Assembly (NCBI GenBank): GCA_963765145.1
Contig: CAVXVG010000027.1
Location: 192,001-256,000, forward strand
Direction: 5' to 3'
DNA from: Parachlamydiales bacterium
GTDB lineage: Bacteria > Chlamydiota > Chlamydiia > Chlamydiales > JAJFMK01
DNA: 64,000 nt
The notes under the pieces were generated by a model. The model worked only from the letters and a program-made list of their open reading frames with translations. It made no database searches and was not told where the DNA came from. The translations under genes and the position numbers were made by a program. Positions 15,333-49,566 of the stretch are shown here, piece by piece. How positions within the stretch are numbered: position 1 is the stretch's first letter; every line of letters begins with the position of its first letter.

Positions 15333-16791
15333 GAGCCACTTGCAAAAATCGGTAAAGAGTCGGCTTATTCTGAAAAATTAGCGAAAAAAAAGAAATCAAA
15401 TGGCTTCTAGGTGTATCCTATAGGTATCTAACATCCATATTATACAGGGAAAGAAGCCATTATGAAGATAAAGTTTGCCCAGTATTGGGAAAGAATTCAA
15501 GGCTCTCTTTTTCCTTGGCTTGAAGAAGAGCTCCCCCCGCTTACCAAGCTCCAACAAAAACTAGTTGCTATACTCGAAGTCATTCAGATTGAAGAGTTCA
15601 TCCCGTCAACATTGCACGACTGTCGAGGGCGCCCAGAAAAATGCCGCAGGGCGATTATTCGCTCATTTATCGCTAAATCGACCTACAATATTCCTACGAC
15701 TAGAAATTTGATAGATAGGTTGCAGTCGGATATTTCCCTAAGACGGATTTGTGGTTGGGAAACAAGAAGAGAAATACCTAGTGAATCTGTTTTTAGTAGA
15801 GCATTCAATGAATTTGCAAAAACCAAGTTACTTCATAGAGTGCACGAAAATTTGATCACCTCTTCCTATGCTGGAGAAATGGTGGGGCATGTAATAACAG
15901 ATTCTACAGCGATAGAAGCAAGGGAAAAAGTCGCCAAAAAGAAACAGAAGGAAAAGCCAGTTATAGTATTGCCTGAAGGGAAAAAGAGGCGCCCAAGAGG
16001 TTACGAAAGAGAACCTACTCGTCTTCAGAAACAACTAAAAGGCTTGCTTTCGCTAGAAGAGATGATTGCTGATTTACCTTCAGTATGTGATGTGGGAGCA
16101 AAAACAAACTCCAAAGGACATCTGCAATGGTGGCGTGGGTATAAACTTCACATAACAGCATCAGACAACGAAATCCCCTTAGCTGCACTGGTAACTTCTG
16201 CCTCAGTAAATGACAGCCAAGTAGCAATTCCGTTAGCAAAGATTACCAAAAAACGCGTTGATAATCTTTATGATGTAATGGACGGTGGGTATGCCTGTGA
16301 CGATGTTGTAGCGCACAGCAGATTTCTAGGACACGTTCCAATCATTGATTGGCCGGCAAAAGGCCACCCTGAGAACAAAGAAATTAAAGAGGCTGAAAAC
16401 TTGGCTTGTAAGACCATCAATCTACATTCTGCTGAAAAAAAGAGGTTTGAAATCCGTACTTCTGTTGAGAGGGTTTTTTCGAGACTGAAAGATGAATTTG
16501 GTGCGAGGTTTGTCAGAGTTAGAGGAGCGAGCAAAGTGCTTACGCATCTGATGTTTGGGGTCATAGCCTTGACAGCAGACCAACTACTCAAGATACCCCT
16601 CTTATAACTGCAAATCGAAAACGAAAGAACAAGCTAGGATGATAAGGCTACCTGCTGTGCAAAAAAGGCGATTTTTTCAACAGTTCTCCCTGAAATAAGC
16701 AAAAAAACACCAAGTCTGCTTTAAAACAGCGAACTTGGTGTTGCGTTGCCCTTTGCCGAGCAAAAAATCACAGGATTTTTGCAAGTGCCTC
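15333..16791 (+). mobile_element. Complete insertion sequence, IS5/IS1182-like DDE type, 1459 bp
   Basis: 18-bp TIR GAGCCACTTGCAAAAATC / GATTTTTGCAAGTGCCTC (17/18); 4-bp TSD TAAA at 15329-15332 and 16792-16795. Confidence 0.92.
15462..16607 (+). CDS. DDE transposase (IS5/IS1182-like)
   Basis: DSTAIEARE, WRGYKLH, SVNDSQ, MDGGY, RTSVERVFSRLK motifs. Confidence 0.92.
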   Translation: MKIKFAQYWERIQGSLFPWLEEELPPLTKLQQKLVAILEVIQIEEFIPSTLHDCRGRPEKCRRAIIRSFIAKSTYNIPTTRNLIDRLQSDISLRRICGWETRREIPSESVFSRAFNEFAKTKLLHRVHENLITSSYAGEMVGHVITDSTAIEAREKVAKKKQKEKPVIVLPEGKKRRPRGYEREPTRLQKQLKGLLSLEEMIADLPSVCDVGAKTNSKGHLQWWRGYKLHITASDNEIPLAALVTSASVNDSQVAIPLAKITKKRVDNLYDVMDGGYACDDVVAHSRFLGHVPIIDWPAKGHPENKEIKEAENLACKTINLHSAEKKRFEIRTSVERVFSRLKDEFGARFVRVRGASKVLTHLMFGVIALTADQLLKIPLL

Positions 16792-45660: not shown

Positions 45661-45750
45661 GCAATAGCCCTATTTTCAACGCGAAGCGTTTGGAGTGCTC
45701 CTGAGCTCGTTTAGCTTTGACTTATCAGTGAAAGTGAAAGCTAAACAGGA

Positions 45751-46098
45751 GAGGCACATGCAAAATTCAGATCGAAATAGGCCCACATGCATTGCATTAA
45801 CCTAAGGAAAAGCTTCCTATAAAAATAACAAGATGAACAGGATCGCCTACGGCGACAGGATAAGCTCCGCCTGCATTCTATTTTTTTATCATGTCTATCA
45901 TGCATATCCCATCTATCATGTTCTTGTAACGTAATAGAAAATACATGATTAAGAGGATAGACATGATAAAAAAATAGAATGCAGGCGGAGCTTATCCTGT
46001 TCATCTTGTTCATCCTGTTATTTTTATATTGTTACCAAATGCCATTAAGAGATGTTAAGGGCTTTACCAGGGTTCATTCTGATTTTTGCAAGCGTCTC
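45751..46098. mobile_element. 348-bp MITE related to the IS at 15333-16791
   Basis: TIR GAGGCACATGCAAAATTC / GATTTTTGCAAGCGTCTC; 4-bp TSD AGGA at 45747-45750 and 46099-46102. Confidence 0.88.
45818..46028. repeat. Family F palindrome (AACAGGATG-type arms) inside the MITE
   Basis: 45-bp perfect inverted repeat 45855-45899/45956-46000 plus outer TATAAAAATAACA/TGTTATTTTTATA. Confidence 0.92.
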
Positions 46099-46250
46099 AG
46101 GAGTTTAGCACATACTGTAATTGCGCTTCAGAGCTTAGCCGGTAAGAAAATGGGCTGTTCTAGGAGGGTTTTAAAAACCCCACGGAGTAGTACTAGACTC
46201 TCCAGGCTTTGGCTTGGTAGCCTAAGCAAGCAATACAGGAGAACAGCCCA

Positions 46251-47351
46251 ATGAAACATTATATCGGTTTAGACGTATCTTTGAAAACTACTGCCATCTG
46301 CATCATGGCTCAAGATGGTAAGATCATCCGAGAGATGACAGCCGCTACTGACCCTTTAGCTATCGCAACTGCGATCAAGACGACCAAGCTCACTATTGAA
46401 GCTATAGCAATTGAAGCTGGTGGAACAAGCCGATGGCTTGTTCAAGAACTTCAAGAGCTTGACCTTCCAGCGATATGTATCGACTCTCGCAAAATGGCTG
46501 CCGCCATCGCAATCAAAGCCAATAAAACAGACAAAAACGATGCGAGGGAAATCGCAAACGCCCTTCGGACTGGCTACTTTCAAGAGGTCTATCAAAAAAA
46601 CGATACAAATATGAGCATCAAAAGTCTCTTAAACATCCGACGCAATCTGGTGATACAAAGAACCATGACGAGTAACTGTATCCGCGGTACTTTGAGATGT
46701 TGTGGAAAGCTTTTTTTAGGGTCTAGTAGTAGTCAAAAGAACTTCATAGAGAAGGTAACAGAGTCGATACAAGATCAACCTGAAGAGGTCGCAATGGGCA
46801 TTCGTGCACTTTTAGTAACCTTTTCTCAACTTCACAAACTAGTAGATGAAATAGACAAGAAGATCGAAGACATAGGAAAGAATGACGAAGTCGTTCAGCT
46901 GCTAATGACAGTTCCTGGTGTAGGGATCGTAACTGCAGTGAGCTATAAGGTTGAAATTGGAGACCCAAAAAGATTCACACGATCGAGGTCAGTTGGAGCA
47001 TATGTTGGGATGACTCCAAGGCAGTATAGTTCAGGTGAAACCGAGCATCAGGGGAAAATAACAAAGATTGGATCAAATGAACTCAGAGCGCTGCTATCTG
47101 ATGCCGCCATGAGCATGATGTATCGATGCAAAACATGGAGTAGAGCCAAAGTTTTTGGGCTAAAGATCAATAAGAAGCATGGGCATAAAAAAGCTATAGT
47201 TGCCCTTGGTCGGAAGCTTGGTGTGATAATGCATCGAATGTGGACAGAAGGTAAACCATTTGAAGCTGGTGAAGTCGAGAAAAAAGAAATTGATAAAGTA
47301 ACCAAGCCAAGTCGGAAAGAGAAGAAAAAATCAAAGCAGATGGCTGCTTAA
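46251..47351 (+). CDS. IS110-family DEDD recombinase/transposase
   Basis: YIGLDVS, IEAG, KTDKNDA (RuvC-like DEDD); TVPGVG, GMTPRQYSSG (catalytic Ser region). Confidence 0.96.
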   Translation: MKHYIGLDVSLKTTAICIMAQDGKIIREMTAATDPLAIATAIKTTKLTIEAIAIEAGGTSRWLVQELQELDLPAICIDSRKMAAAIAIKANKTDKNDAREIANALRTGYFQEVYQKNDTNMSIKSLLNIRRNLVIQRTMTSNCIRGTLRCCGKLFLGSSSSQKNFIEKVTESIQDQPEEVAMGIRALLVTFSQLHKLVDEIDKKIEDIGKNDEVVQLLMTVPGVGIVTAVSYKVEIGDPKRFTRSRSVGAYVGMTPRQYSSGETEHQGKITKIGSNELRALLSDAAMSMMYRCKTWSRAKVFGLKINKKHGHKKAIVALGRKLGVIMHRMWTEGKPFEAGEVEKKEIDKVTKPSRKEKKKSKQMAA

Positions 47352-47404
47352 GAAAAGTTAAAAAAGTTCTCAAAGAGCGAAAGAGCAGAGAGAGTAAGAA
47401 AAAA

Positions 47405-47590
47405 GATTCAAATACGAGTTCGAAATAAGGTTAAGACGCTTTGGAGTTGACGCTAATAAGACGTCGTGTAGCACATTGTCTTACCTTGTTTCTTTTGGAA
47501 AGTATGTTGGGGCTGAAGATCAGCTAATAAGGCCGAAATCTTCAATAAAAAGGACCCCGGAGAGAACTATGACCGAGTTAGAATTTTATT
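47405..47590 (+). ncRNA. Predicted bridge/seek-type guide RNA of the IS110-family element (ends approximate)
   Basis: Two structured loops with segments matching the target (47440-47447, 47469-47474) and the donor junction (47501-47508, 47561-47567). Confidence 0.8.
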
Positions 47591-47806
47591 TTTTACGATC
47601 AAGCTTTGGAAGCCCATAGAGGAAGTTGTCAATTATCTTGGGGGAAGTATCCCCCAAACCCCCTCGGCTTAGGAAGGGGAAAGAGAAAAAATCATGCTTG
47701 CCTAGAAACGCAATTAGAGAACTCCAAACGCGTTGCGAACGAAAGAGTTTTTGGGCAAGGGCGCGTGAATGGTAAAAAATAAGATTTACCATTAAGGTGG
47801 GGTTTA

Positions 47807-49566
47807 ATGTCCTATCGAGCTCTATTTTCTTTTGTTTGGCAATCTGTACGACCCTATAAGCTATTTCTACTGCTCATTCTCGTTCTCTCTACGATATGGT
47901 CGTTAGAGGCTATTTTGTGGCCCTACATCTTGAGGTTAGTTGTAGATGGTTTGACCGAGTTTCAAGATAATCGGGAAGCTGTCTGGACCGTCTTACAATG
48001 GCCTATTACGCTGGCGATTATCCTGTGGCTGGGGACCGATATTGGAACAAGTGCGCAAGGGTTTTTAGTGGCTTGGCTGGTTCCTAAAATGGAAGCAGAG
48101 GTGCGGATGAACACATTTGATCATGTTCAAAAGCATTCACCTGCTTACTTTAATAAAAATTTTGCCGGGACTTTAACCAACAAAATTGCCGATCTGACAG
48201 GTGAAGTGACCGCTATTTGGGGACAATTGATCTCTGTTTTTGTCCCATTTATAGGTGCTTTTGTTTTAGCGACCCTCTTTTTTTTCCAAGTTAGGCCGAT
48301 TTTTGCTGTTCTTATCTTTATTTGGATGGTCCTTCACATTTTGATCAGCCTTTTCTTTGCCAACTATTCGGCCCACTACGAACAAATCCACGGAGAAACC
48401 CGCAGCGATTTGTACGGAAAAATTGTCGATAGTTTAACCAACAACATGACTGTTAACCTTTTTTTCCGATTTGTGGATGAGTTCAAAACAGTCTCCCTTT
48501 TTCAACAAAAAGAGAGGACAGCTCACTCACAATCGGCAAGAGTGACACAATATTTGCAGATTGTTTTATCGGCTTTAACTTTTTTGGTAGGCGGGCTGCT
48601 GATCAACGGCTTGATGTTCCATTTTTGGGGGCAGGGAGCTGTTTGACCGGAGAAGTGGTTCAGGTGTTTAGTACCTCAACCAATATCATGATGCTACTAT
48701 TTGGCTTAAGCAGCTCTATCCCAGCGCTTTTTGGTTCGATGGGGATGGCCATGCAAGCGTTGACGCTTTTGGAGGCGCCGCAAGATGTGCTAGATAGTCA
48801 AGGGGCTAAACCTCTAGTTGTTACGAATGGCGAAATTGTTTTTGAAAACGTATCTTTTCAATATGGCCAAAAAGGGTTGTTTGAGAATAAGAGCATTGTG
48901 ATCAAGGGGGGAGAAAAGGTAGGCGTCGTCGGTTTTACCGGAGCTGGTAAAACAACATTTGTGAATCTGATTTTAAGGTTTTATCCCCTTAAAAGCGGTA
49001 AAATTTGCATCGATGGGCAAGATATTTCAGAGGTGACTTTAGAATCGTTACGAAACCAAATTGCATTAGTTCCACAAGACCCGATCCTTTTCCATCGAAC
49101 CATCAAAGAAAATATTCGATATGGTCGCCTAGACGCAACCGATCAAGAGGTAGAAGAAGCTTCGAAAGCGGCCCATTGCGATAATTTCATAGAAAGATTC
49201 TCTGAGGGTTGTGAAACCGTTGTAGGAGAAAGGGGAACTGCTCTTTCGAGCGGTGAGCGGCAACGGATTGCAATAGCGCGGGCCATGTTGTCAAAAGCCC
49301 CTATTTTGATATTAGATGAAGCAACTTCTTCCCAAGATTCTATTACAGAAAAATATATCCAAGAAGGGTTTGAAAAACTCATGCAAAGAAGAACTGCTAT
49401 TGTGATTGCCCACAGACTATCCACCTTGAAAAAGATGGATAGAATCGTGGTTTTTGAAAAAGGAAAAATTGTAGAAGAAGGCAATCACCAAGCCCTTATC
49501 TCACAACACGGACCTTATGCCCACATGTGGGATGTACAAGCCGCTGGTTTTTCCTCCGCCATTTAA
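47807..49566 (+). CDS. ABC exporter (TMD + NBD), split by one frameshift near 48625-48645
   Basis: TM domain in the first frame; GFTGAGKTT, LSSGERQR, ILDEATS, IAHRLST in the second frame. Confidence 0.88.

Follow-up and report, generated by a model that had tools for sequence, protein, structure and literature searches.

Published work describes two patterns among RNA-guided insertion sequences of the IS110 family. The recombinases of IS621 and ISCro4/IS622 have a RuvC, coiled-coil and Tnp fold with a DEDD motif and a catalytic serine; their RNAs carry a target loop and a donor loop with four guides and act on a dinucleotide core, and a REP target and a junction promoter have been reported for them (Durrant 2024, PMC11208160; Hiraizumi 2024, PMC11208158; PMC13626964; bioRxiv 10.1101/2025.05.14.653916). 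Members of the IS1111 group, for 93% of which bridge RNAs have been predicted among the ISfinder entries (PMC11208160), have subterminal inverted repeats and ends of unequal length, the left one short and the right one long (PMC11208160, PMC11187229). In ISEc11, ISPa11 and ISKpn4, studied by Siddiquee et al. 2024 (PMC11187229), a long non-coding region lies 3' of the transposase, and the match to the top strand of the target precedes, within a stem-loop, the match to the bottom strand. ISPa11 also targets a host REP, and natural retargeting has been described between the relatives ISEc11 and ISXne4 (PMC11187229). RNA guidance, a downstream RNA in IS1111 elements, REP targeting and natural retargeting are already published (PMC11208160, PMC11187229, PMC12288879).

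The element described here lies in a window of 64,000 nucleotides (the whole stretch of DNA that was analysed) and resembles both sets of elements in the respects listed above, down to a target in a REP-like host palindrome and a predicted junction promoter. It is very probably an IS1111-group insertion sequence that moves by RNA-guided recombination. It belongs to a different clade from ISEc11, ISPa11 and ISKpn4, with a different target, and its RNA is a predicted one. Unlike IS621 and ISCro4, with which its protein shares 22-24% identity, it carries the RNA region in the right end (theirs is in the left), has an AC core (theirs is CT) and possesses long inverted repeats. Its parts and their surroundings are as follows.

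46110..47722, + strand: IS1111-type element, 1,613 bp with both AC cores (five full-length copies with the same end points)
46110..46111, + strand: AC core, left junction (the empty repeat arm has a single AC)
47721..47722, + strand: AC core, right junction
46118..46129, + strand: left subterminal inverted repeat TAATTGCGCTTC (11 of 12 nt equal the reverse complement of 47705-47716)
47705..47716, + strand: right subterminal inverted repeat GAAACGCAATTA, partner of 46118..46129
46251..47351, + strand: IS110-family transposase/recombinase, 366 aa, the only ORF of the element
46100..46109, + strand: flank to the left of the insertion, GGAGTTTAGC, the inner portion of the repeat arm (the same in five of five copies)
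47723..47731, + strand: flank to the right of the insertion, TCCAAACGC, the outer portion of the repeat arm (five of five copies and one orphan right end)
45680..45751, no strand: the other arm of the host palindromic repeat, together with the repeat's middle (about 350 bp with another palindrome family stand between it and the split arm)

A BLASTN comparison with the host's own genome (2.68 Mb in 37 contigs, 84.8% complete) returned five full-length copies, 99.9-100% identical: three are identical, one has a missense change and one is frameshifted by a one-base insertion, and four of the five keep an open frame and the catalytic residues. Each of the five is flanked as GGAGTTTAGC-AC ... AC-TCCAAACGC, and the empty sites rebuilt by removing the element are in every case the same as free repeat arms, with no longer target duplication. 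The subterminal inverted repeats, which are kept in orthologs, lie 6 nt and 4 nt inside the cores, and 139 nt on the left and 369 nt on the right separate the cores from the ORF. An earlier note on this DNA had called an IS110/IS1111-type element with AC on both sides, splitting a repeat arm at TTTAGC-AC-TCCAAA; the five copies with common end points and identical flanks bear out both statements, and every motif that it named was found where it had placed it. It had also proposed mapping all genomic copies as a check, and all five sit in TTTAGC-AC-TCCAAA, with none at unrelated sequences. Besides these, the last 36 nt of the element occur as an orphan at G000:C21:174136-174171, followed by TCCAAACGC and preceded by another palindrome family; as no left end motif lies nearby, it is probably a truncated sixth insertion. 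The joined circle junction is absent from the assembly, and no joint was seen in four shallow public contig sets, which cover only pieces of the element. Short identical pieces were present in the public runs X1, X2 and X3 (shares of at most 0.27, all contigs), and contigs of the RNA run X7 hold a 204-nt piece of the element's 5' end with four differences, a cover that stops short of the right end.

The transposase exceeds the cut-offs for Pfam PF01548 and PF02371 and scores 239.5 bits against NCBIfam NF033542 (cut-off 140). In an alignment to 8wt6, its residues D8, E55, D94, D97 and S261 correspond to D11, E60, D102, D105 and S241 of IS621, numbered as in PMC11208158; among 46 homologs the last four are invariant, and D8 is at least 90% conserved. 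With an AlphaFold2 model (mean pLDDT 86.3), the ten best Foldseek matches were all chains of IS621 and ISCro4 (E 3e-16 to 2e-14, 22-24% identity; top match 8wt9). The family named in the earlier note is confirmed by the Pfam and NCBIfam scores, the active-site alignment and Foldseek alike. The G-x-x-P-xxxx-S-G motif of IS1111 elements (PMC11187229) reads GMTPRQYSSG here, and a basic C-terminal tail makes the protein longer than the 330-350 aa typical of the group (PMC11187229). When 8,000 candidates were scored, at least 3,867 relatives had an E value of 1e-40 or better, the nearest of them at 68%, and relatives occur in 35 of 401 genomes of the order, the own genome counted. The best plasmid match was at 41.5%, and among the 25 best plasmid records the nearest named element is ISMno22 of Methylobacterium nodulans, with about 40% identity over 93% of the protein; unnamed alphaproteobacterial IS110-family transposases are also near at the protein level. 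A single-protein scan of genome contigs gave only five distant loci (26-32% identity), which were left out of the covariation analysis. Upstream of the ORF, in the left end (46140-46250), there is a conserved pairing of GGGCTGTTCT, near 46153, with AGAACAGCCC just before the start codon, which could mask the ribosome-binding site, and many orthologs have a conserved CGGAGTAGT...CTCTCC segment.

The insertion point, in all five full copies, lies in one arm of a host palindromic repeat. The 12-mer TAGCACTCCAAA occurs 178 times in the genome, against 0.37 expected from base composition, and is followed by CGC, as in the repeat, at 176 of the 178 sites; GCACTCCAAA occurs 287 times. Searching with both arm patterns gave 292 arms, among which 86 left arms have a right arm within 200 nt, mostly 63-68 nt away. 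Only 22 of 287 arms fall inside ORFs of at least 100 aa, though such ORFs cover 83% of the genome. A mostly intergenic repeat with about 290 arms would offer the element many landing sites of low cost. The distance from the insertion to the partner arm is 421 nt (upstream) in the window, 68-69 nt in three other copies and 356 nt in one. A tie between the repeat and a RAYT gene was looked for and not seen: none of the six PF01797 (Y1 tyrosine transposase) matches in this genome (85% complete) has an arm within 1.5 kb; for that reason we speak of a REP-like palindrome and not of a demonstrated REP/RAYT system. In the window the host palindrome is itself interrupted, at 45752-46096, by about 350 bp with CAGGAG on both sides, an insert that holds a different repeated palindrome (45855-46000) with 45-bp perfect arms and many genomic relatives; elsewhere in the window, at 15462-16607, a transposase-like ORF (IS1182/IS5-like, below cut-offs) stands between arms of the host repeat family. 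The genome also has a single copy of an unrelated IS110-family element (L029, G000:C25:31093-32619; 27% identity, intact 362-aa ORF) with subterminal inverted repeats of its own; it too splits the host repeat arm, at the dinucleotide used by the first element but from the opposite strand, as TTTGGA-GT ... GT-GCTAAAC. Its rebuilt 20-nt empty site has 36 occurrences, and its 3' region contains TTTTGGAGT, which equals left flank plus core, and ATAGCAG, which equals the donor end.

The right end of the element contains a predicted bridge/seek RNA, the parts of which are listed together with the donor sequence that it would read.

47418..47574, + strand: predicted RNA core, target loop and then donor loop (span of the covariance model, which includes this sequence)
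47422..47438, + strand: 5' arm of the stem closing the target loop (pairs with 47478-47492 in the fold; helix 1, 8 of 8 counted pairs changed on both sides)
47478..47492, + strand: 3' arm of that stem (from fold and covariation)
47440..47447, + strand: right target guide TTTGGAGT (complementary to the top strand of AC plus TCCAAA; covaries with the right flank)
47449..47467, + strand: inner hairpin of the target loop (helix 2)
47468..47474, + strand: left target guide GTAGCAC (left flank plus core save the first letter; covaries with the left flank)
47501..47508, + strand: right donor guide AGTATGTT, made up of AGTAT (47501-47505), the core-facing GT (47506-47507, variable) and a scaffold T
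47509..47559, + strand: donor-loop inner stem GGGG/CCCC with a variable apical hairpin (helix 3, 99.1% of cells paired)
47561..47567, + strand: left donor guide AGAGAAC (the last 7 nt of the right end)
46112..46116, + strand: right donor ATACT (tracked by the right donor guide across orthologs)

The structure was assessed in orthologs collected from genomes of the order and from metagenomes (the 80 best of 348). A transposase match was present at 147 loci; the 91 of these that combined at least 40.5% identity with the donor-loop motif yielded 70 distinct RNAs, from which one (L020) was dropped for its deleted target loop, leaving 69 RNAs of elements at 41-59% protein identity; the selection made use of the left donor guide motif, and right ends were located by a similar motif. 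The stems are marked by ATAAGGTTAAGAC at 47425, GTCTTACCTTGT at 47478 and GGGGC (47509-47513) with GACCCCG (47553-47559). Across the 69 rows, 94.9% of the cells of the three helices are paired, against 78.7% after shuffling and 32-42% after sliding, controls that favour the structure somewhat, as it is the alignment's own consensus and the sequences are related. Compensatory changes on both sides occur in 14 of 17 pairs, and the nine strongest pairs by corrected mutual information are all stem pairs. The structure rests on this covariation, since the single-sequence fold of 47400-47600 is unexceptional (z -1.38). Folding and covariance modelling across homologs had been suggested in the earlier note, and the two-loop scaffold is indeed held by compensatory changes. 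No covarying outer stem that would close the donor loop was found in the 69-RNA alignment, which fits the multi-loop donor region of many IS1111 RNAs reported in PMC11208160. Rfam gave no family over the right end, only microRNA models below threshold on the neighbouring palindrome, and the covariance model found the five copies and two weak matches (E 0.01 and 0.5) in the genome, with no solo RNA copy. The ortholog that was set aside, L020 (G053), also has a right junction that departs from the usual end and flank. In another ortholog, L037 (G200:C3; 57% identity), the right end holds two guide-RNA scaffolds (1367-1524 and 1882-2009, about 485 nt apart), both enclosed by one left end and one right end. 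The flank actually present agrees with the first scaffold; in the second, the right target guide is different and the donor guide is degenerate. A G/C-run hairpin motif, GGGGG..CCCCC..CCCCC, lies 3' of the RNA in the window (47633-47680), and similar motifs are present in L037, L038 and L040 and once elsewhere in the genome.

Within the target loop, the match to the top strand (47440-47447) stands 5' of that to the bottom strand (47468-47474), which is the order given for IS1111 elements in PMC11187229. When 357 nt of the right end were dinucleotide-shuffled 20,000 times, the two target strings appeared together four times and all four guide strings never; as the strings had been picked after the fact, covariation in orthologs is the real test. 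For this, guides were scored against flanks by the letters outside the core only. With RNAs lacking a flank and 10 with a one-base alignment slip set aside, the right target guide agreed with its own right flank at 5.30 of 7 letters, against 2.14 when permuted (n=50), with 45, 45, 45, 43, 42, 33 and 12 of 50 matches at successive positions, counts that imply a reading of about 6 nt. The left target guide scored 4.86 of 7 against 2.27 (n=49), its five core-adjacent letters climbing from 31 to 49 of 49. None of 20,000 permutations reached the right target, left target or right donor score, also with identical guides collapsed, and there were 42 distinct right guides among the 50 RNAs. When kinship was limited by pairing 40 complete elements into 20 disjoint nearest-neighbour pairs on the protein tree, the flank fitted its own guide in 84 of 106 comparisons at which the right guides differ and the partner's in 10; for the left guide the figures were 76 of 92 and 7. 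The fit is poor on at least one side in L047 with its four sister copies (right guide 3/6), L052, L153 and L159. At its two core letters the right target guide reads GT in 60 of the 69 RNAs, counted by column. These results agree with the earlier placing of TTTGGAGT at 47440-47447 as a target match; TAGCAC at 47469-47474, read there as left flank plus core, was correctly located, with too short an extent, for the slot has 7 nt with an outer mismatch: the outer G of GTAGCAC is matched at none of the 178 genomic TAGCACTCCAAA sites, 177 of which have T. The notion that orthologs with a TTGGAGT guide are directed to this repeat family was not borne out, GCACTCCAAACG being present in one of five genomes searched (G001, 10 sites) and in neither G200 nor G192. 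As for the description of the element as intact and reprogrammable, natural retargeting in the orthologs supports programmability; that this copy is both is something we infer.

The donor loop is less straightforward. The right donor guide matched its own end at 5.75 of 7 letters, against 4.56 when permuted (n=52), and in the pairs the right donor followed its own guide 12 times and the partner's 3. Only about 5 nt of it (AGTAT) track the donor across orthologs; the eight-of-eight match of AGTATGTT to the junction claimed in the earlier note was therefore right in position and overstated in length, with GT limited to 10 of the 69 RNAs and the final T a near-invariant letter of the scaffold. 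The left donor guide, AGAGAAC, holds by sequence at the position first proposed, 47561-47567, and is almost invariant, its covariation being reached by 266 of 20,000 permutations; the rare variants AGGGA, AAGGA and AAAGA match their own ends, and the same motif was used to pick the orthologs, which is why no fair test of this guide can be drawn from them. In IS621 the right donor guide pairs with the core and then has two free handshake letters. Here, in contrast, the core-facing donor letters vary freely (GT 10, AG 16, AA 15, GG 11, GA 8, AT 7, other 2, in 69 RNAs) and are followed by a near-invariant T and G, which begin the inner stem; donor-core pairing of the IS621 type is possible in the window copy, with its GT, and does not extend across the 69 RNAs. 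Handshake-like covariation of these letters with the target letters before the core was sought in 41 elements and not seen, nor was a base-pairing partner for them found inside the RNA, and their weak associations with target positions +3 and +4 are best put down to shared descent. It is conceivable, and we put it forward tentatively, that the clade has a variant bridge RNA whose donor loop need not read the top-strand core and which lacks free handshake letters. In that case the direction of the reaction would depend on a target loop that pairs with the whole core and a donor loop that pairs with it loosely, unlike the IS621 rule; the same reading would take in a clade that retargets often, with two guide RNAs in L037, and two unrelated elements that converged on one repeat dinucleotide from opposite strands.

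An alternative is that the donor loop has a minor part: the protein would find the ends through the subterminal inverted repeats, and the working guide would be a seekRNA of the target loop only. Such a reading suits donor guides that are short and little varied and core-facing letters that are unconstrained, and short target-only RNAs predominate for ISEc11, ISPa11 and ISKpn4 (PMC11187229) as well as for CazIS110-1 (bioRxiv 10.1101/2025.10.25.684509), although in the latter both circle formation and integration needed the full-length RNA. With a donor-loop stem conserved as well as that of the target loop, right-donor covariation beyond all permutations, own guides preferred by 12 to 3 in the pairs, and rare left-donor variants that go with their own ends, we consider it unlikely.

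For the preferred two-loop, RNA-guided reading, the steps may be pictured by analogy with IS621, ISEc11, ISPa11 and CazIS110-1. The ends would join at AC into a circle, and the joined ends would build a promoter, TTGCCT-18 nt-CATACT, from which the recombinase and the downstream RNA would be transcribed; its upstream box is placed at

47698..47703, + strand: predicted -35 box TTGCCT (in the circle junction, CATACT would follow after 18 nt)

and its predicted -10 box, CATACT, would be given by the core C and ATACT (46112..46116). The transcript would be processed into two forms, a short one with the target loop and a longer one with both loops; the target loop would open the DNA and pair with both strands of TAGC-AC-TCCAAA, the donor loop would read AGAGA-AC-ATACT, and the RuvC and serine active sites would exchange strands beside the core. 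Whether such elements excise cleanly or copy out is disputed (bioRxiv 10.1101/2025.10.25.684509). Of 63 right ends from orthologs, 34 have a TTG[A/C] that begins 24-25 nt ahead of the end, which leaves 17-18 nt to a CATACT/CATAAT-type box, and the motif is absent from 14; most orthologs have TTGAC, a stronger -35 box than the TTGCCT of this element. The putative junction promoter would account for the little-varied right donor sequence. The weak -35 box, together with one frameshifted copy, one orphan right end and only 5 insertions against 178 free perfect sites, could also mean that the element was recently active and is now silent, with the right anatomy and no more movement in this host; three identical copies and a fourth with one missense change imply recent movement, however, and the catalytic residues are intact, so that we find silence distinctly improbable. 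That the protein chooses its target by reading a hairpin or cruciform of the repeat, the right-end matches being incidental, is scarcely credible, for although every copy sits in a palindromic repeat arm and a paired-repeat preference has been proposed for ISPpu9 (PMC12288879), dozens of orthologs with other guides occupy other, matching sequences, and for two of the five copies the partner of the occupied arm is 356-421 nt off.

Bridge recombinases are being mined as genome-writing tools, and the solved structures found here are those of IS621 and ISCro4 only. The ends of the present element are mapped, its core is AC, its target is known and its predicted RNA is compact, at about 160 nt; its orthologs supply more than 40 naturally occurring guide-target pairs, from which the reprogrammable letters can be seen, with guides readable straight from chlamydial genomes. 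More than one RNA-guided element may use chlamydial intergenic palindromes as landing pads. A search of the open literature gave no paper on a chlamydial IS110/IS1111 bridge RNA or on this ortholog; PMC9997750 mentions IS110 only for Tisiphia, Wolbachia and Paracaedibacter, and the searched part of the PMC11208160 supplements has no match to the clade's end motif or to 'Chlamyd'. It is quite possible that the element stands as an unnamed entry in a large ortholog table.

As to the host, a DUF2709 gene adjoins the element, two NTP/NDP exchange transporters are encoded in the window, Hc1 is over its cut-off and a Chlam_OMP6 match falls below it. We take these to be marker families of Chlamydiota, and they are consistent with an environmental chlamydia, as the chlamydial lineage given in the earlier note would have it. 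Directly 3' of the element, an ABC transporter is encoded by two ORFs, a membrane part (47807-48646) and an ATPase part (48625-49566), the overlap of which suggests a gene split by a frameshift.
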